Positions 13,903 through 52,823 of a stretch of DNA of 64,000 nt are shown piece by piece. Every line of letters starts with the position of its first letter. The stretch's first letter is position 1. This stretch comes from Alphaproteobacteria bacterium (GTDB lineage: Bacteria > Pseudomonadota > Alphaproteobacteria > Rs-D84): positions 658 to 64,657 of the forward strand of contig SUUO01000005.1 of NCBI GenBank assembly GCA_015062485.1, read 5' to 3'. The position numbers and the translations under genes are program-made. The notes below the pieces were generated by a model. It was not told the DNA's origin. It worked only from the letters and a program-made list of their open reading frames with translations, and did not search any database.

Positions 13903-13989
13903 TGGTGGGAGTGGCTGGATTCGAACCAGCTCAGGCTTAAGCCAACAGATTTACAGTCTGCCCCGGCTCTCCAACTCCGGCGCACGCCC
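13903..13989 (-). tRNA. tRNA-Tyr (GUA), long variable arm
   Basis: Manual fold: anticodon loop CUGUAAA, variable hairpin GGCUUAAGCC, T arm GCUGG-UUCGAAU-CCAGC, encoded CCA. The acceptor stem has one C4:U69 mismatch, and position 8 is C. Confidence 0.8.
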
Positions 13990-14042
13990 GAACTTATCGC
14001 CACACGCTTTTGTGGCCTGCCACACGAAGCCTTGGCGAAGTG

Positions 14043-14117
14043 TGGTGCGGGCAGCGGGAATCGAACCCGCATTTCAAGCTTGGAAGGCTTGCATACTAGC
14101 CTTTGTACTATGCCCGC
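14043..14117 (-). tRNA. tRNA-Gly (UCC)
   Basis: GCGGGCA acceptor, anticodon loop CUUCCAA, T arm GCGGG-UUCGAUU-CCCGC, CCA. Close to E. coli tRNA-Gly(UCC). Confidence 0.9.
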
Positions 14118-30549: not shown

Positions 30550-30577
30550 TTGCAATCCTAAAAAAGTCTGTTATAAT
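30550..30577 (+). promoter_or_regulatory. Sigma70-type promoter of the tRNA(CAU) gene
   Basis: TTGCAA-16 nt-TATAAT, ending 11 nt before the tRNA 5' end. Confidence 0.65.
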
Positions 30578-30588
30578 GCGTTTCGCTT

Positions 30589-30663
30589 GGCAGCGTAGCT
30601 CAGTGGTAGAGCAGAGGAATCATAATCCTTTGGTCGGGGGTCCGAATCCCTCCGCTGCTACCA
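30589..30663 (+). tRNA. tRNA with CAU anticodon (Ile2/lysidine-type or elongator Met)
   Basis: Manual fold: GGCAGCG acceptor, D arm GCUC-AGUGGUA-GAGC, anticodon loop AUCAUAA, variable UGGUC, T arm GGGGG-UCCGAAU-CCCUC, CCA. The variable region resembles E. coli ileX. Confidence 0.8.
30619..30645 (+). repeat. Left copy of the 27-nt direct repeat (inside the tRNA)
   Basis: atcataatcctttggtcgggggtccga. Confidence 0.95.
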
Positions 30664-30668
30664 GAATT

Positions 30669-30691
30669 TCCCGGTGTTCCGGGATTTTTTA
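30669..30691 (+). terminator. tRNA terminator
   Basis: tcccgg/ccggga stem followed by a T6 run. Confidence 0.75.
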
Positions 30692-30852
30692 TTTTGTAAA
30701 AATTTTCCGATTTTGTCCGAATTTGTCGATTTTAGCAGATTGTTTTACATATACTGGACATAACTTTGGACATAGAAAATATGTTTACATGCGTAATCCT
30801 TTTGCCTGTTTTACACTATGAATTATAAAGGGGAATACACAGAAAGTCGCGG

Positions 30853-30909
30853 CAAAAGGTTGCAAAGGATGACAAAGGGTTACAAAGGGGTATGATGCTT
30901 TACAAAAGC
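30853..30909 (+). repeat. Five CAAA(A)GG motifs phased at exactly 10 bp
   Basis: The C of each motif falls at 30853, 30863, 30873, 30883 and 30903. An inverted copy, ccttttgcc, lies at 30798-30806. Confidence 0.85.
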
Positions 30910-30956
30910 AATATAAACGTAATTAAATGTTTTTTGTGTGAATGCTAAAATAGCGC

Positions 30957-30998
30957 TTGACTTTTTGTATCCGTTTGGATACAATACGGATGTATAAT
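30957..30998 (+). promoter_or_regulatory. Predicted promoter with palindromic operator for the toxin-antitoxin operon
   Basis: TTGACT (30957-62)-17 nt-TACAAT (30980-85). The palindrome GTATCC-GTTT-GGATAC (30967-82) sits in the spacer, and GGATGTATA repeats lie downstream. Confidence 0.5.
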
Positions 30999-31066
30999 AA
31001 AGCAAAAGGATGTATATGAGGAAGACAACGTAGGGGCTGGACGTTATCAGCCGGGAGTAAAAGAAA

Positions 31067-31360
31067 ATGTTAATAAAGCAGACAACAGAATATGTAAAAT
31101 GGTTTGATAAATTAAAAGATTCCGAAGCGCAGTTTAGGATAAGCACAAGGATAGATCGCATCGCAACACAAAATCATTTTGGTGATTTTAAGCCGGTTGG
31201 TGATGGGATTTATGAATTGCGAATAAATTATGGTCCTGGATATAGGGTTTATTATACGAGGCAAGGTGAAGAAATTATCTTGTTGCTGATTGGGGGCGAC
31301 AAATCGACGCAACAGTCAGATATTGAAAAGGCCAAGAACATATTGGCAACACTACCGTAG
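31067..31360 (+). CDS. RelE/ParE-superfamily addiction-module killer protein (HigB-like)
   Basis: 97 aa; ...FDKL.D..A..RI..RIDR......GD.KPVGDGIYELRI.YGPGYRVYY...G..IILLL.GGDKS.Q..DIEKA; GGAG RBS. Confidence 0.85.
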   Translation: MLIKQTTEYVKWFDKLKDSEAQFRISTRIDRIATQNHFGDFKPVGDGIYELRINYGPGYRVYYTRQGEEIILLLIGGDKSTQQSDIEKAKNILATLP

Positions 31361-31411
31361 ACGTAGGATGTCATCGGTTAGTAGATAACAAATTACTCAA
31401 AGGAGTAAATC

Positions 31412-31732
31412 ATGAAAAAAGGGAGTAACAAGATAACAGAATGGAATATTCTGGATTATCTTAAAACAGAAGAAGATATTGCTAACTATCTAGAAGCTGC
31501 ATTAGAAGAAAATGATATTGAGTATTTTTTAATAGCCCTTGGAAATGTTGCAAAGGCACGTAGCATAAATAAAATAGCAAAAGAAATAGGGGTAGGACGC
31601 GAATCTTTGTATAAAAGTTTCTCTGGTGCACGTCGTCCAAATGTAGAAACTGTTTTTAAAGCAATAGATGCGTTGGGTTTAAAAGTTAATTTTACACCTA
31701 AAAGTACATATAATCAAAGTGTAGCAGCATAA
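31412..31732 (+). CDS. Addiction-module antidote protein with HTH (HigA-like)
   Basis: 106 aa; ...YL..AL.E.D......AL.NVAKARS...IAKE.GV.RESLYK.....RP...TV.K...ALGL. Confidence 0.85.
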   Translation: MKKGSNKITEWNILDYLKTEEDIANYLEAALEENDIEYFLIALGNVAKARSINKIAKEIGVGRESLYKSFSGARRPNVETVFKAIDALGLKVNFTPKSTYNQSVAA

Positions 31733-31736
31733 TATA

Positions 31737-31760
31737 CCGCCCGTTTTGGGCGGTTTTTTG
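31737..31760 (+). terminator. Intrinsic terminator
   Basis: ccgccc/gggcgg stem followed by a T6 run. Confidence 0.75.
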
Positions 31761-31817
31761 TATATTGTGTTTATGATTAAATTCTGATACTATTATACTT
31801 GTATAAAGAGGTGTATT

Positions 31818-32600
31818 ATGAAGATTCCCGCAAAGTTTATAAAAAGAGCAAATGAACAATTAAAAAAGTATCAGGTTATTGTTAGAAAATTAAAAAGACA
31901 AGAAGTTAATGAGACGGATACAGTTAAAGTTATTAACGATATTTTTGCGGATCTTTTTGGATATGATAAATATACCGAAATAACTAGTGAATATGCAATT
32001 CGTGGAACATTTTGTGATTTGGCAATAAAGCAACAAAGTGGTAAGATTTACATGTTAGTAGAAGCAAAAGGGGTGTCTATTCCTTTAAAGGAAAATCATA
32101 TTAAACAGGCTACAGATTACGGTGTTAATCATGGAACAAAGTGGGTTGTATTAACAAATTCTGTAGATTGGAAGGTTTATAAAATTAAATACAGTCAACC
32201 AATAGAACGAGAATTGGTTTTTGAATTCAATTTATTAGACATGGATTTAAAAAAAGAAAAACAACTTGAGGTTGTTTTTGCTCTTAGTAAAGAAGGACAG
32301 GATCTTTCTGTAATAGATGAGATTTATTCAAATAATCAAGTGAAAAATAAGTATGTCCTTGCGGGGTTGATAGATAGTCCTGAGATATATAAGCTTATAA
32401 AAAAACAAATAAAGCTGTATTTTGAAAATAGTATCAAAATAACAGATGAAGAGATTTCTAATTTTATAAAGTTTGATATATTTAAGCGAGAGGTTTGGGA
32501 TAGTGATGAGGCGAAAGAATATCAAAAGGTTTTGAAAAAGATGATTAAAAAAGCGGAAAAAAAGAAACAATTATCTGTTACAAAACAAGGTGTGCAATAA
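31818..32600 (+). CDS. HsdR-N-type (PF13588-like) PD-(D/E)xK nuclease-fold protein with a Lys-rich helical tail
   Basis: NETDTVKVINDIF.DLFGYD...E.....G.FCDLAI......MLVEAKG......H..QATDYG...G.KWVVLTNSVDW.VY. RBS is aagagg. Confidence 0.6.
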   Translation: MKIPAKFIKRANEQLKKYQVIVRKLKRQEVNETDTVKVINDIFADLFGYDKYTEITSEYAIRGTFCDLAIKQQSGKIYMLVEAKGVSIPLKENHIKQATDYGVNHGTKWVVLTNSVDWKVYKIKYSQPIERELVFEFNLLDMDLKKEKQLEVVFALSKEGQDLSVIDEIYSNNQVKNKYVLAGLIDSPEIYKLIKKQIKLYFENSIKITDEEISNFIKFDIFKREVWDSDEAKEYQKVLKKMIKKAEKKKQLSVTKQGVQ

Positions 32601-32610
32601 AATAATATAA

Positions 32611-32644
32611 AAATAAAGGAGCGCCATACGGCGCTCCTTTATTT
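32611..32644. terminator. Bidirectional terminator with a 15-bp stem, shared by convergent island genes
   Basis: aaataaaggagcgcc-atac-ggcgctcctttattt. Confidence 0.85.
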
Positions 32645-35600
32645 ACTCTCTTGTTCTATAAACTTTTTTAATTTAATAACTTCCCTGTCTTTCGATCTAA
32701 ACCAACTTGTTGACCATATTCTATAGAATTTATATCCATAGCTTTCTAGAATTTTTTGACGCTGCATATCTTCTGCAAACGCTTCTTCAGAGCCATGATA
32801 TGCTTTCCCGTCACATTCCAGAGCTATATCCTTGCCGCCAACTTTCAACAAAAAGTCAAGTCTATATCCCCCAACTTTGTATTGAGGCTTAATAGCATCT
32901 TGTGGCAGTATTTTTAATAACTCTTCATACACTTCTTCTTCAAATGGCGATTCTGTTAATCCTTCAGCGGAACTATTTGTATCACGTCTAGGTGTTTCAT
33001 AAGAGTATTCTTTTATCGTTTTTAAAACGGTATCTACTGTTGCAAGATCGCCAAGTGCATGTGCTTTCACATAGGCTAAGTAAGCATAAAATATAGCTAT
33101 GCGGTTGTTTTCCTGCTTTTCTTCTAATCTGGATTTATAGTCAGCAAATTTCATCTCTGGAATTGAGGTCACTAAAAACAGTTGCTGTTTTGCTCGTGTT
33201 ATAAGTACATTAAGCAGCCTATATCCTTCATCCCTATTTATAACAAACTGTTCTTTAAACTTACCGTCATGAGCAGGTCCGTATGTTGTGGAAATAATGA
33301 TAATATCTCTTTCGTCACCTTGGATATTTTCTAGATTCTTTACAAACAAAGGATCTTTATGTTGTTCCAGTTCTGCATATATCTTTGCGAATTCTGTATC
33401 TTCTGCTGCAACCTCATGTAACATCAATTTAATTAAATTGCGTTGCTGCACATTAAATGTTGCAATACCAACAGATGGCAGTTTCCCAGGATACATGGTA
33501 GGCAATGCTTTTATTATCTCAATAACTTTATATGCCTCCTTTTCATTCATTCTATCTGCATACACACCATCAACATGGTAATATGTAAATGGGGTATTTG
33601 TAGCAATGCGTGCAGGCAATGGACACAAATTACAGCCATAAAAAGCGCAATTTGAAAACTCAATCAATGCAGGATGCTTACTTCTGTAATGGAAATCTAA
33701 ATAAGAAGCAAATTCTTTGACATTTTTAAAGCTCTCTGCGTATTCAAGTAAAGATTCTGAGTCAAGTGGCGCCAAATCAAAACCGTCGCCATCATCATCG
33801 TTTCCATCAACGTTCCCTCCATCCATATTTTTTGCAAACCAGTTAGACGGAGGCATCTGATGTTTATCTCCTGCTATGATTTTATATTGTCCACGTATCA
33901 TTGAGGTGTAAACATCTTCTATTCTTAACTGACTGGCCTCATCAAATATCACCAGATTAAACAGCCCTTGTTTTAATGGAAGCAAGGCATTCGCAACAAT
34001 TGGGTTAACCATTATTACGGGGAATAAATCAGTAAATGCGTCAAACTCTTTGTCAATAATTTGTCTCAAAGATAGTTTCTTAGCGTATTTTCCTCTTTTT
34101 AATGCAAACAATGTTTTGAAACCATATTTACTATCCAGGGTCGCAATTGCATTTTCTCGTTCATAATACCAAGTTTTAAAGATTTTTTTCGTATTATTCT
34201 TTTGTAGTTTTATAAACAACTCTCTCAATGAGGCCAATTCTGGCTCTTTTGCAGATGTTAAAAACTGTTTCTTTGTCTTTTTGGCATGATTTAACAAGAA
34301 GTAATAATAATAAACAGCTTGGAATAAATCTTCCCAATAAGAATCATCCTGCTCAAGCAAAAGAGAATCAAACAACACTACATCTCTTTTATACTCTTGT
34401 AGCCATGAAATATATATTTCTAACTCATCAAGTTTCTCTAACAACGAAACTAGCTTTGTCTTAATTTTTTCCGCACACTCTTTAGCACCTTGGGTTGTTC
34501 TATAATCAAAATCCTTTGCTACAACACCATTAAAACTATTAGCAACAGTATCCTTTACCTCTTCGTAAATCTGTTGGCCTGCCACTATAGAGTTTAATAT
34601 ATTGTGCAGATTATCTACTTCAGATACACGTTCTTTAAGCTTATTTTGTATATCTTCTAGTTCTAATGCCAGATTTTTCTGTCGTGCATGCAAATCCGCG
34701 CTTATATCATTTACATTGCTTTCAATATCAGCTAAATGAGATCTGATATGTTCATAAATTAGATTTTGAGTATTTTTGGTTTGAATAGAAACGTTTTCTG
34801 CTTCTTTCTTGATCGATAGCAGGGCAGCACTTTCACAGTCATTATACGAACAAAAATCTCCATATTTTGTTGTATACTCATCTATTTTTCTTAACAACTG
34901 CTTGTAATTCTTACGTACTTTTTTTGCATATTTATGACTTTCTGAAAGCTTTTTAGAGAAAAGCCTTGTTACAATATTTGAATTATAAGCATTAAAATCT
35001 TCCCCAAGTATTTCAATTCCTTCTGCAAAAGCCTCTTGAATATCTTCTACATCATCCAAAATAGAATAGAGTCTTCTAAGCTTATCCTTAACATTTTCAT
35101 CTAACTGCATACTTTCGCATTTGCAATTAAATCTTCTGGCAACAGTAAGTATATCTTCACATAACGCTCCTGCGCTTTTAATCCAATCAGCCAGATTATC
35201 TTTACTTTCTGTTATTATATTGTGTTTATTTTGCAATTCGCTTAATTTTACCAGACATTCGCGCATAGCATTATCAAAATGTTGTACACTTTGAATTTTT
35301 CCTTTATCTACAATTGGTAGCAAATCAATATCCTTGCCACAAGACTTTGAAACGATAGATAGTTGATTGTTTATTTCGGCAATCATATCAACAAATTCTT
35401 GTTTTTTACCTACACTCAATAATTTTGAAGCGTTTGTGGAGTTTGCCTTTATTTCATTACAAATCCCCAAGGACTTGGATAGTTTATCAGTCTTGGTATA
35501 CATGGATGTTGTGCCAATATCTAAGATTGTATTATCAATAAAGTTGATAAGCTTATTGATATGCTTTACGGCAACATCTATATTCTTTTCAATCAAAATT

Positions 35601-37162
35601 TTTCCACTAACAGATAAATCGATTTCTTTATCCAAATTAAACAAGTCAAACGAGGTTGTATCTATATGCTTGCAGGCGGAATGTGTTTCTGCCCCCCGTT
35701 TGACCAAATTACAATAATTTACAAATTCTGCAGAATTAAATTCCCAACCTGTGGCTACATGCTCCAGATTATCTCTAATTGATGCAAAGGCATCACGTTT
35801 GGATTTCTTTAAGAACAAACCAATCAAATCAGACCATGTTTTTTGTTCAAAAATAGGTTCGCTAGAAGCTTTGTATGAAGCGTTAATCGAATCTCTTAAT
35901 CTATTAAAATTTTCTTGATCTCTTTCAAACTCCACTTCATTAAATGCTTTGGTCGGATTGTATTGCTGTAAAGCACGTGCTTTGTCGACCACAGCTCTGC
36001 GGTCTTTGTTAACATCATCAACAACTATACAAAAAGTGTCTAAACCCTTTTCCGACAAATTGTGTTTCAATACGTCTAATGCAGTTTTCTTCTCACAGAC
36101 AACCAATGTCTTGGCACCATTTGCCAGTGCGTTAGAAATGATCGCTGAGATTGCCTGACTCTTACCTGTCCCCGGAGGCCCTTGAATAATCTTAAACTCA
36201 TTGTCATTTAGAGTTCTTATTATTTCTTCTTGACTAGGATCTGTATCAAAGGAAGCCTCAGATGAAGTAGAAAAACGCTCTAACTCCATATCTTCCGCAT
36301 TAAACTGATCTATATTTTTTTGTAATTCTAAAACGGATTCTATAATGGTTTCTTTTTGTGAACGAAAAAGCCCAAAGACCCCAGACCACTGAACAAAACC
36401 ATTACCAGAGCATAATTTTTCCAAATGCTCTTTTGTGCCAACAGGTTCCAATTTCAGAGACAGATCGTCAAATTTTATATTCAATTTCTTCAATATATCC
36501 TTCAGATACTTTTGTATTTCATTTTCTTGAAGTATCCCATCGTCAATATCTTCTATATCCAGGCGTTCCAATTGAAGTTTTTCTGAATTCTCAATGTACG
36601 ACATTAAAATTTCATTCATTTTGATTGGACTATCTTCGTTTTTTGAAATAATCCACTCATTTTTACGGTTAGACTTTCTGATATCCAGCGACCACAAGAA
36701 CAAAGGAGCTACGATAGTCTTTTTTTCATCTTTCTTGTCTGGCAATACCAGCAATGGATACCCAAAGGCAAAATTTTTCAGTCCGGTATCAATAAAAGAA
36801 TCTTCGTTATCTATAGCCATAGAATCTAGGCGCTTTCCAACGATAACAAGCCTGTCTTTTATTTCTGCGTCCATACTGGTTAATTTCTTGTCTTCCCAAG
36901 AAAATCGGAAATCAAATTTATCTTTAGTCAATAGAGTTTCTAAAAACTTCTTTGCATATGTATCTTTTTTTGTTTTTGATGTGTCAGAAAACAAATCTAA
37001 ATCTGGTTCTACGTTGGCTATAGATAAGTCGCATAAATCTAATCTGTTTTTTAGTCGACCAGGCACAGCCATCAAATGTATTGGCGTACGTCCAACCAAG
37101 CCGGTTAATTTCTTATAAATGCCTTCCAAAAACTTTTTATCAAATTTTATTTGTGACTTCAT
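32639..37162 (-). CDS. Giant DUF4011-like / SF1 (Upf1-DNA2-type) helicase / DUF559-Vsr-like endonuclease fusion protein
   Basis: Motifs: GPPGTGKSQ, VIFDEASQL, IAGDKHQMPP, FHYRSKHPALIEFSN, GDERDIIIIS, VLITRAKQQLFLV, and C-terminal GGYRLDFLL..DIALECDGKAYH. The ATG at 37162 has a GGAG RBS. Confidence 0.8.
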   Translation of the reverse strand: MKSQIKFDKKFLEGIYKKLTGLVGRTPIHLMAVPGRLKNRLDLCDLSIANVEPDLDLFSDTSKTKKDTYAKKFLETLLTKDKFDFRFSWEDKKLTSMDAEIKDRLVIVGKRLDSMAIDNEDSFIDTGLKNFAFGYPLLVLPDKKDEKKTIVAPLFLWSLDIRKSNRKNEWIISKNEDSPIKMNEILMSYIENSEKLQLERLDIEDIDDGILQENEIQKYLKDILKKLNIKFDDLSLKLEPVGTKEHLEKLCSGNGFVQWSGVFGLFRSQKETIIESVLELQKNIDQFNAEDMELERFSTSSEASFDTDPSQEEIIRTLNDNEFKIIQGPPGTGKSQAISAIISNALANGAKTLVVCEKKTALDVLKHNLSEKGLDTFCIVVDDVNKDRRAVVDKARALQQYNPTKAFNEVEFERDQENFNRLRDSINASYKASSEPIFEQKTWSDLIGLFLKKSKRDAFASIRDNLEHVATGWEFNSAEFVNYCNLVKRGAETHSACKHIDTTSFDLFNLDKEIDLSVSGKILIEKNIDVAVKHINKLINFIDNTILDIGTTSMYTKTDKLSKSLGICNEIKANSTNASKLLSVGKKQEFVDMIAEINNQLSIVSKSCGKDIDLLPIVDKGKIQSVQHFDNAMRECLVKLSELQNKHNIITESKDNLADWIKSAGALCEDILTVARRFNCKCESMQLDENVKDKLRRLYSILDDVEDIQEAFAEGIEILGEDFNAYNSNIVTRLFSKKLSESHKYAKKVRKNYKQLLRKIDEYTTKYGDFCSYNDCESAALLSIKKEAENVSIQTKNTQNLIYEHIRSHLADIESNVNDISADLHARQKNLALELEDIQNKLKERVSEVDNLHNILNSIVAGQQIYEEVKDTVANSFNGVVAKDFDYRTTQGAKECAEKIKTKLVSLLEKLDELEIYISWLQEYKRDVVLFDSLLLEQDDSYWEDLFQAVYYYYFLLNHAKKTKKQFLTSAKEPELASLRELFIKLQKNNTKKIFKTWYYERENAIATLDSKYGFKTLFALKRGKYAKKLSLRQIIDKEFDAFTDLFPVIMVNPIVANALLPLKQGLFNLVIFDEASQLRIEDVYTSMIRGQYKIIAGDKHQMPPSNWFAKNMDGGNVDGNDDDGDGFDLAPLDSESLLEYAESFKNVKEFASYLDFHYRSKHPALIEFSNCAFYGCNLCPLPARIATNTPFTYYHVDGVYADRMNEKEAYKVIEIIKALPTMYPGKLPSVGIATFNVQQRNLIKLMLHEVAAEDTEFAKIYAELEQHKDPLFVKNLENIQGDERDIIIISTTYGPAHDGKFKEQFVINRDEGYRLLNVLITRAKQQLFLVTSIPEMKFADYKSRLEEKQENNRIAIFYAYLAYVKAHALGDLATVDTVLKTIKEYSYETPRRDTNSSAEGLTESPFEEEVYEELLKILPQDAIKPQYKVGGYRLDFLLKVGGKDIALECDGKAYHGSEEAFAEDMQRQKILESYGYKFYRIWSTSWFRSKDREVIKLKKFIEQESK

Positions 37163-37187
37163 GATAAACTCCGACACTATTTCTTTA

Positions 37188-37216
37188 ATTATACAATATA
37201 TATTCCTAATAATCAA
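37188..37216 (-). promoter_or_regulatory. Sigma70-type promoter of the helicase-nuclease gene
   Basis: On the minus strand, TTGATT-17 nt-TATAAT, ending about 25 nt before the ATG at 37162. Confidence 0.6.
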
Positions 37217-37477
37217 TTATTCCAGGCTAGGTTAATGAAACTGTATATATTTGTATTTGGTATGATTAAGTAGGGGTAAAAACTTTACATAGAAAAATGG
37301 TTAAAAAATGGCGGAAATGTGAGTGGTATAGCGATTTTTGTTAAAGTGAATTTTGTATTTAATATGATTAACGCTTATGGACAATTTTACATATTCTAGA
37401 CATAGAAAATTGGTGTGCTGTGGAAAGTGGCGGATTTCTGCGGGGTGCGTGAGGGAAAATACTTTGTGCGCTGGTAT

Positions 37478-37504
37478 ATCATAATCCTTTGGTCGGGGGT
37501 CCGA
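37478..37504 (+). repeat. Right copy of the 27-nt direct repeat
   Basis: Identical to 30619-30645. Confidence 0.95.
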
Positions 37505-37599
37505 CAAAAAAGCAGGTTTTGCAAGTGTAACGCAGCGAAACCGTTGCGATTTGGAAATGAGCCCATCGCGGCACATTTATGTGACGGATGGGAATACAC

Positions 37600-37651
37600 A
37601 ATCCCTCGGGCAGCTACCAAAATTCAAACCGCCAGATTAGGCGGTATTTTT
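37600..37651 (+). other. Possible degenerate relic of a tRNA 3' end plus terminator
   Basis: aatccctc...gctacca-aaattc resembles the intact tRNA at 30645-30670 (aatccctc...gctacca-gaattt). A ccgcc/ggcgg hairpin and T-run follow. Confidence 0.4.
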
Positions 37652-37655
37652 ATAG

Positions 37656-37904
37656 TTATTTCTGTTTTGTATATGATGGGCAATGTTTTCTTGCTAATTC
37701 GTGTGCTTGGGCAATCAACATAGGTATATAAATTTGACGTGTAAAATCACTGTCAATTTGTATCTCCATTGTTGCCAACAATGGATTTAACTTTGCATAT
37801 GTTCCTGCTGGTCTGCCACAGTTATGATAACGTGTAATTATCTTTATCTCACATTTACTTTCACATCCTTCACAATAATACCTGGCTTCTTGTTCAGATG
37901 ACAT
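37656..37904 (-). CDS. Hypothetical Cys-rich small protein (82 aa)
   Basis: CEGCESKC...HNC cluster. No family recognised. Confidence 0.35.
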   Translation of the reverse strand: MSSEQEARYYCEGCESKCEIKIITRYHNCGRPAGTYAKLNPLLATMEIQIDSDFTRQIYIPMLIAQAHELARKHCPSYTKQK

Positions 37905-44746: not shown

Positions 44747-44820
44747 TGGTGCCCTAAGCAAGAATCGGACTTGCGACTCGTCCTTACCAAGGACGTGTTT
44801 TACCACTAGACTATTAGGGC
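44747..44820 (-). tRNA. tRNA-Thr (GGU)
   Basis: Manual fold: GCCCUAA acceptor, anticodon stem CGUCC/GGACG, loop UUGGUAA, T arm GCAAG-UCCGAUU-CUUGC, CCA. Confidence 0.75.

Positions 44821-52746: not shown

Positions 52747-52823
<77 letters not shown>

Follow-up and report, generated by a model that had tools for sequence, protein, structure and literature searches.

How an AT-rich island of 6.9 kb can occupy a tRNA gene while encoding no recombinase is the question raised by a 64,000-nt stretch of DNA (the window; contig SUUO01000005.1) from Candidatus Enterousia, a small-genome bacterium of animal guts (Alphaproteobacteria, order Rs-D84) whose relatives have reported genomes below ~1 Mb (PMC12306168). 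The original prediction, made from the sequence alone, described an immobilised or trans-mobilised integrative island in a tRNA(CAU) gene, bounded by a perfect 27-nt direct repeat. We find a fairly ordinary kind of genomic island, similar to the cis-mobilizable elements (CIMEs) of other bacteria. With a probability of roughly 0.7, it is an integrase-less defence island that entered site-specifically at the anticodon loop and is now locked in place by decay of the flank of its right attachment (att) site, attR, and stabilised by a toxin-antitoxin (TA) pair. All coordinates without a locus label refer to the window, and L-numbers (L002, L013, L015 and so on) are labels of the relative and metagenome loci that were compared.

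The 27-mer ATCATAATCCTTTGGTCGGGGGTCCGA occurs exactly twice in the 64 kb, in identical orientation and without a mismatch, once within the intact tRNA(CAU) gene and once at the far end of the island (Table 1). No match appeared in 100 shuffled sequences, even when three mismatches were allowed, confirming the predicted repeat. Identity sets in with the first base of the anticodon loop, a recognised att subsite and reportedly subsite A of Williams 2002. In the Islander survey, three att subsites are described in tRNA genes, the anticodon loop, the T-loop and the T/acceptor junction, and the first of these is the commonest (PMC4383910). The DNA following the tRNA gene up to the right repeat (30664-37477) has a GC content of 33.6%, compared with 42.7% for the remainder of the window, and none of 251 windows of equal length placed elsewhere fell under 39.2%. 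The GC content at third codon positions (GC3) likewise ranges from 0.16 to 0.37 in the island genes, against 0.39-0.50 in most neighbours. An AT-rich interior had been predicted and is borne out by these values, with the correction that AT-rich variable DNA does not end at the right repeat; it continues to ~37960, through a gene for an 82-amino-acid (aa) protein.

Comparison with relatives identified sites that lack the island. In L015, L009 and L007 the tRNA gene is followed by its own terminator, ~60 nt and then a homologue of window 37498-37650; in L196 only 264 nt lie between the tRNA gene and the gene for a 165-aa membrane protein (window 38042). The terminators that follow the tRNA gene in these island-free relatives differ from that of the window. 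Because the tRNA gene of the relatives adjoins the DNA that forms the right flank here, the segment 30664-37497 is an insertion, and the empty sites that the original prediction had proposed to look for exist between species. Within the species the picture is uniform: ~20 contigs share the gene order of the window, those of JGI 3300022753, 3300023371 and 3300024303 are 99.995-100% identical to it across the island, both repeat copies included, and no empty site was seen in same-species contigs. The near-identical contigs from three samples indicate that the island is fixed in a near-clonal population and is no assembly artefact.

The inner side of each repeat carries an arm that is shared with other islands. 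The left arm is 83-92% conserved beside different cargo in L146, L154 and L204. The right arm, composed of two tandem units of ~102 nt (starting at 37250 and 37352), is 94% identical between the window and L154, where housekeeping DNA is 78% identical. Within the 64 kb, ACATAGAAAA occurs three times, always within the arms (0.24 expected; 0/100 shuffles reached three), and the 20-mer TTTTACATATNCTNGACATA is found at 30743 and 37385 only. An octamer pattern defined after inspection of the data, T[TG][TGA]ACA[TC][AG], is present six times in the 428 nt of the arms, always on the + strand, versus twice in 6.4 kb of interior DNA that is just as AT-rich, a ~45-fold difference in density. Identical one-strand octamers are carried by the arms that surround other cargo in L146, L154 and L204. 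The arm motifs of the original prediction are therefore real, arm-specific and confined to one strand. Its proposal that they are arm-type sites is supported by the recurrence of the arms around other cargo and by an integrase module in L013 (below); by analogy with that module, the same-strand octamers are most likely arm-type sites for an integrase with an N-terminal arm-binding domain. Neither the motifs nor the 27-mer behaves as a dispersed repeat.

Four complete islands share these arms, with different cargo, and an integrase is encoded by 0/4. The window island carries a HigBA-like pair, an HSDR_N protein and a helicase-nuclease; that of L154 has HigBA alone, followed by two right-arm copies with a Nudix gene between them; island 2 of L146 holds Cys-rich proteins and a Fic protein; and that of L204 encodes an AAA_15/AAA_21 ATPase with a partner and two lipoproteins. 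L146 contains a tandem array of integrase-less islands, and in L154 the right arm is joined directly to the flank. The arm family may thus be non-autonomous and mobilised in trans.

Tyrosine-integrase islands in tRNA genes have their own integrase near one end; here Pfam searches of all open reading frames (ORFs) of the island returned no recombinase domain. At E<=1, the small ORFs of the two arms, where decayed integrase fragments had been thought worth seeking, likewise gave no Pfam match to a recombinase, whole or decayed. A regular expression for tyrosine-recombinase box II, a weak test, had no match in six frames among window ORFs of at least 120 aa, and tblastn with two integrases from relatives had none in the window. 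The predicted absence of a recombinase thus held in all of these searches, and no remnants of conjugation or integration genes were found in the island. When proteins were searched with the N-terminal part of the L013 integrase, one 109-aa fragment without context was obtained; compared with all loci by tblastn, this fragment and the L208 integrase matched no relative with window-type arms.

The more distant relative L013 provides a precedent for how such arms might be used. An ORF with Arm-DNA-bind_3 and Phage_int_SAM_3 domains lies ~470 nt from a displaced tRNA fragment in this locus, and a gene for a 61-aa HTH_17 (AlpA/excisionase-like) protein lies ~290 nt from it. In tandem with this integrase-bearing island stands an integrase-less one; their common right arm of ~190 nt contains two CTACAC motifs, and the integrase-less member has three further CTACAC motifs in its left arm. 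As the window octamer, TKKACATR, differs from CTACAC, a different integrase, not seen here, would be needed for the window island. Accretion with an integrase-bearing island was observed only in the L013 arm family; the tandems of the window arm family, in L146, are integrase-less.

The right end of the window island is damaged. The right repeat had been taken for a stand-alone att copy, and is instead the remainder of a tRNA fragment, joined to a second conserved element: it retains 27 of 45 nt, and by comparison with L146 the last 18 nt of the tRNA gene are missing. In L146 the right arm (553-750) abuts a full 45-nt fragment (751-795), running from the anticodon loop to CCA, which is followed directly by the terminator and left arm found after the window tRNA, at the start of L146 island 2. 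From this arrangement it follows that the terminator and left arm are island DNA and that the 3' half of the present tRNA gene was supplied by the island. Full 45-nt fragments with the same boundary were found in L146 (751-795 and 3145-3193), twice in L013 and in L006, and many unrelated metagenome contigs have the same fragment boundary for this type of tRNA. The second fragment of L013 is succeeded by a terminator, a promoter and a tRNA-like mini-element of type A (described below), an order that, judged from these sequences, would be the expected ancestral attR arrangement for the window. In the window itself the fragment ends at GGTCCGA and runs straight into the body of a mini-element that also contains GGTCCGA. 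The tail of this mini-element ends in AATCCCTCGGGCAGCTACCA at 37619. The element is a hybrid, its positions 1-126 matching the L015 type A and 102-150 matching the type-B tail and terminator of L015, which indicates a second deletion between short repeats.

The consequence for mobility can be read from the sequence. The attL site, both arms and the attR core (anticodon loop and 3' stem) are intact, and only the distal 18 nt of attR have gone. Recombination between the 27-mers would give a tRNA gene with ~96 nt inside its T-loop, in which the acceptor 3' strand GGGCAGC cannot pair with the 5' strand GGCAGCG. Since precise excision would in this way destroy the tRNA, this copy of the island is probably immobilised. 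Of the two alternatives in the original prediction, immobilisation is hence the likelier for this copy, and trans-mobilisation fits the history of the family.

These observations are consistent with the following history. An integrative island (30619-37504) would have entered the anticodon loop of tRNA(CAU) through site-specific recombination by a tyrosine integrase, bringing with it a new tRNA 3' half (from 30619), a terminator and the left arm, and pushing the original 3' half to the far end, beside the right arm. A deletion between copies of GGTCCGA would then have removed the last 18 nt of the displaced fragment, the fragment terminator, and the promoter and 5' hairpin of the adjoining mini-element, and a second deletion between short repeats would have merged two mini-elements. 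The island would from then on be effectively locked in a genome of <1 Mb, with the TA pair adding stability.

Several points weigh against this history. Loss of the island tRNA(CAU) would be fatal if the gene were single-copy and therefore essential; what the window shows is that the other CAU tRNA (52747-52823) has a C1xA72 mismatch and is the initiator. The connection between octamers and integrase is drawn by analogy with L013, whose heptamer differs (CTACAC), and no cognate integrase of the window arm type was found in the fetched loci, a search that did not extend to arm sequences in public DNA. The absence of an integrase from all four complete islands fits a non-autonomous family better than independent decay. 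Finally, in L154 (239-420) and L009 (6330-6400) a left arm of island type, complete with its heptamer or octamer repeats, comes after a mini-element CCA and not after that of the tRNA, a position that simple anticodon-loop integration leaves unexplained.

The same facts lend themselves to other accounts. The island could belong to an active family of non-autonomous cassettes, moved in trans or in cis by an integrase encoded elsewhere (on a phage, an integrative and conjugative element (ICE) or an island targeting the same tRNA), with the present copy still mobile. Such a family would account for four arm-sharing islands with different cargo and no integrase, for the tandem array in L146 and for a right arm conserved above the housekeeping level; the integrase-less island of L013 stands in tandem with a same-armed, integrase-bearing one, and accretion and cis-mobilisation of CIMEs by ICEs are documented (PMC5704250). 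We nevertheless consider continued mobility of this copy unlikely, as its truncated attR flank means that precise excision ruins the tRNA, the island is invariant in all same-species contigs, and no helper integrase is present in the 64-kb window or in the fetched loci with these arms. At the level of the history of the arm family, trans-mobilisation is plausible.

Alternatively, the locus could be a hotspot at which cargo is exchanged by homologous recombination. Mini-elements, conserved arms and the 3' ends of tRNA genes would then supply portable homology, and the tRNA repeat would be left over from an old integration, with no site-specific system still at work. Identity across the locus is indeed mosaic (right arm 94-99%, left arm 83-86%, flanks 72-78%), breakpoints fall in arms or short repeats (L002 at 37343, L204 at 37250, the GGTCCGA fusion, the A/B hybrid and L154), and islands at other tRNA genes have only the helicase gene in common with this one. 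However, the arms lie inside the repeats, where exchange through the flanks would not need them, an exact boundary at the anticodon loop and fragments in tandem are what site-specific recombination characteristically leaves behind, and L002 and L204 derive from one sample and look like reciprocal assembly chimeras. As a replacement for site-specific entry we find this account rather doubtful; it is compatible with our preferred explanation and does not exclude it. It is very improbable that the far 27-mer is a tandem tRNA duplication, or part of a tRNA-like array, beside 6.9 kb that arrived by an unrelated route. The far copy is fused to a tRNA-like element, and such elements share GGTCCGA and a 3' tail with the tRNA, but intact elements hold only GGTCCGA and not the stretch from anticodon loop to T-stem, the DNA upstream is the island right arm, which in L146 abuts the full 45-nt fragment, and island-free relatives have no such fragment. 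A dispersed repeat was likewise rejected as the source of the 27-mer.

Contigs L002 (1-3110) and L204 (1-8680), both from ENA sample ERZ27248446, each match the window at 99.95-99.98% up to a right-arm breakpoint (37250-37343), the two covering opposite sides of it. Past the breakpoint, identity to the window drops to ~72-80% or no match exists, and L204 carries two genes for uracil-DNA glycosylase (UDG). Probably the assembly joined two co-occurring species reciprocally into chimeras; the alternative is genuine recombination. Exchange of cargo within the population was considered and set aside in view of the single sample, the reciprocal breaks and the two UDG genes.

Set beside known systems, the window island, read here as a locked, integrase-less defence island, resembles the tRNA islands of Islander in its intact tRNA gene, displaced direct 3' fragment and anticodon-loop start, and in its foreign composition, its presence or absence among relatives and the tandem arrays found there. 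It differs from them in lacking an integrase and in having a fragment of 27 of 45 nt that is fused to another element; the Islander filter requires an integrase gene, so that integrase-less islands are not catalogued (PMC4383910). The CIMEs of Streptococcus thermophilus have lost their integration and transfer genes, have kept attL and attR, and form accretion structures (PMC5704250). The likeness extends to the lack of integration and transfer genes (by Pfam) with recognisable attL and attR sites, and to the tandem accretion with a same-armed, integrase-bearing island in the L013 relative. In contrast to a CIME, the attR of the window is damaged and no remnants of conjugation or integration genes point to descent from an ICE or an integrative and mobilizable element; moreover, all 4/4 islands being integrase-less is more like a non-autonomous family than sporadic decay. 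P4-type islands combine an integrase of the Arm-DNA-bind_3/DUF4102 type with AlpA/HTH_17; at this tRNA position L013 carries just such a module beside attR, and arm-type direct repeats occupy both arms as they do here, the window having neither the integrase nor the excisionase gene. Integron arrays are similar in placing small variable cargo (TA, Nudix, Fic and small proteins) between conserved non-coding repeats at one locus. Unlike in integrons, the island is bounded by tRNA fragments, and its arm repeats are direct and one-stranded instead of inverted. A cassette array of this kind was rejected, since IntI, attI and palindromic attC sites are all missing.

Table 1. Features of the tRNA(CAU) island and its surroundings.
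Feature	Coordinates	Strand	Basis or remark
Promoter of tRNA(CAU)	30550-30577		TTGCAA-16-TATAAT; promoter scan
Non-initiator tRNA(CAU), intact, elongator Met or Ile2	30589-30663	+	ARAGORN; Rfam tRNA model, 66.3 bits
Left 27-nt repeat (attL core), anticodon loop to fifth T-loop base	30619-30645	+	Exact repeat
Left arm (P' side)	30664-30830	+	Conserved in L146, L154, L204
Island-borne terminator in left arm	30669-30694		Terminator scan
Left-arm octamers T[TG][TGA]ACAT[AG]	30744, 30755, 30767, 30784	+	Octamer count
Candidate promoter of toxin gene	30957-30985		Promoter scan
Toxin, Gp49/HigB-RelE-like, type II TA	31067-31360	+	Pfam PF05973, 33.9 bits (cut-off 23.9)
Antitoxin, HI1420/HigA-like helix-turn-helix antidote	31412-31732	+	Pfam PF21716, 96.4 bits (cut-off 27); HTH_3
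260-aa HSDR_N_2 (PD-(D/E)xK-like) protein	31818-32600	+	Pfam PF13588, 40.1 bits
Perfect 15-bp inverted repeat, 4-nt loop, between convergent genes	32611-32644		Repeat search
1507-aa superfamily-1 helicase with C-terminal MTES_1575/DUF559 (Vsr-like) nuclease	32639-37162	-	Pfam
Right arm (P side)	37217-37477	+	Present in L154, L146, L204
Right-arm octamers	37284, 37386, and GACATAGA at 37398	+	Octamer count
Right 27-nt repeat (attR core), truncated displaced tRNA 3' fragment	37478-37504	+	Exact repeat
Decayed resident tRNA-like mini-element, overlapping the repeat via GGTCCGA	37498-37653	+	Homology to L015 and L009 elements
Mini-element terminator	37628-37653		Terminator scan
82-aa Cys-rich protein gene, GC3 0.23	37656-37904	-	Outside the 27-nt repeats
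Mini-elements of relatives	L015 8622-8951 (-); L009 6050-6340; L007 7330-7650 (-); L013 5110-5270; L154 100-257

The predicted gene content, a TA pair, an HsdR-N-like protein and a giant helicase-nuclease, was recovered by Pfam, and the cargo appears, from its domains, to be of defence type: a HigBA-like pair, a protein of HSDR_N nuclease fold and a helicase-nuclease of the PDC-S37/Hhe type. The toxin and antitoxin genes lie 51 nt apart on one strand, and both products score over their family thresholds. The inverted repeat between the convergent genes is likely a bidirectional terminator. In the helicase-nuclease the domain order is DUF4011, AAA_11, AAA_12, MTES_1575 (Pfam), the same as in PDC-S37/Hhe candidates, and strong matches were obtained to the hidden Markov models of PADLOC (PDC-S37 at 9.6e-137, Hhe at 4.7e-81). 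The PDC-S37 match spans residues 625-1505 of PDC-S37, the N-terminal third being more divergent. Hhe is the name given in a defence-finder table to a DUF4011 protein (PMC11232893); a literature search on PDC-S37 found no paper. On this basis the 1507-aa protein is a candidate single-gene anti-phage defence protein.

The helicase-nuclease family comprises 1828 proteins at E<=1e-20, and the closest homologues sit in other islands. One, 83% identical, is encoded in L208 (6500-21300), where the nearby tRNA gene is tRNA-Gly(CCC), ~6.6 kb away, and where a 321-aa tyrosine integrase and a HipA toxin are encoded as well. Another, 63% identical, adjoins a tRNA-Asn gene in L209 (1500-15100), within a defence island that also carries Mrr, EcoRI-type methylases, GmrSD, HicAB and DUF3800, with restriction-modification genes among them. 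The HSDR_N protein was examined as a partner of the helicase and rejected, there being no homologue of it beside the helicase in L208 or L209.

A further cassette of the tRNA(CAU) hotspot, the 82-aa Cys-rich gene, lies outside the repeats; paralogous cassettes are present in L002, L143 and L146, and L015 and L196 lack the gene. The small Cys-rich family to which it belongs (N-terminus MSS.QEA.YC.GCE..CE, C-terminus KHCP.Y) forms variable hotspot cassettes in the window, in L002 (257-3026), in L143 and in L146 (1370-1700). The L002 and L143 cassettes are each preceded by a conserved module containing a hairpin (ATTTGTATTATGACCTGGG.CCCGTGG...), and the window copy is as AT-rich as the island.

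The tRNA(CAU) gene has peculiarities of its own. Its T-loop (30640-30648) reads UCCGAAU, with C at position 55 where U is near-universal, in all Enterousia-like genomes seen but L154, which has the canonical UUCGAAU (40-60). In L002 (9810) the tRNA(CAU) differs from that of the window by one T-stem base (G53 to U). The order of the genes for tRNA-Met, tRNA-Thr, UDG and aspartyl-tRNA synthetase (window 13903-14117, 44747-44820, 52747-52823) varies among Enterousia species, and the tRNA-Met and tRNA-Thr genes are close together in L007 and L009; the varied order suggests inversions ending at these tRNA genes.

Most Enterousia-like genomes contain one to three tandem mini-element units downstream of tRNA(CAU). 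A unit is ~170-190 nt long and consists of a terminator, an extended -10 box that is conserved (TGgTATAGT), a GGACC-N3/4-GGTCC hairpin, GGTCCGAC, a body of ~90 nt and a tail. The bodies fall into three types (A, B and C), with hybrids and truncations. The tail, AATCCCTYCGCYGCTACCA, copies the tRNA from T-loop to CCA and mostly tracks the acceptor sequence of the resident tRNA; a terminator follows it. In the central hairpin compensatory changes were seen in 8/17 pairs, 95.5% of cells were paired versus 83.6% in shuffles, and the covariation score was 0.42 versus 0.02-0.10 for slid registers, the structure having been derived from the same eight sequences as were scored. Rfam searches of the window region, L009 and L015 matched the tRNA only and no mini-element; identification as tmRNA, signal recognition particle RNA or a Y-RNA-like molecule was dropped. 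Scans of viral contigs with the mini-element and with the tRNA 3' half gave 0 matches each. In L133 (5472-5569), an unrelated contig, tRNA(CAU) is followed by its own 3' fragment with a 30-nt insertion in the middle of the T-loop, like the Enterousia mini-elements in miniature.

Two interpretations of the mini-elements suggest themselves from these features. They may be small RNA genes with a tRNA-mimic tail, or they may be gene-less mini-islands at the T-loop/acceptor att subsite, bounded by repeats of 19-21 nt. The latter would explain why the left arm follows the CCA of an element in L154 and L009. A wider proposal joins both tiers: the arms would define integrase-less, non-autonomous defence cassettes that are loaded by an integrase encoded elsewhere into one tRNA(CAU) hotspot of reduced-genome gut symbionts, with a second tier of mini-elements, which would be either small RNA genes of a new, tRNA-mimicking class or mini-islands without genes. 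This joint scheme is tentative, and we hold it to be possible and no stronger.

What makes the locus interesting is mainly that a whole arm family lacks integrases, that the island has probably locked itself in place by decay, and that tRNA-like elements lie next to it. Genomes of ~0.9 Mb are expected to shed accessory DNA, and here 6.9 kb of defence and TA island (~0.75% of the genome) has become fixed, apparently because decay of the island has tied excision to loss of the tRNA. Such islands are missed by pipelines that require an integrase, and the mini-elements beside this one, undescribed in Rfam, offer a concrete target for metatranscriptomics. For the family as a whole, the shared arms indicate that a tRNA hotspot needs no resident recombinase for its defence cargo to turn over.

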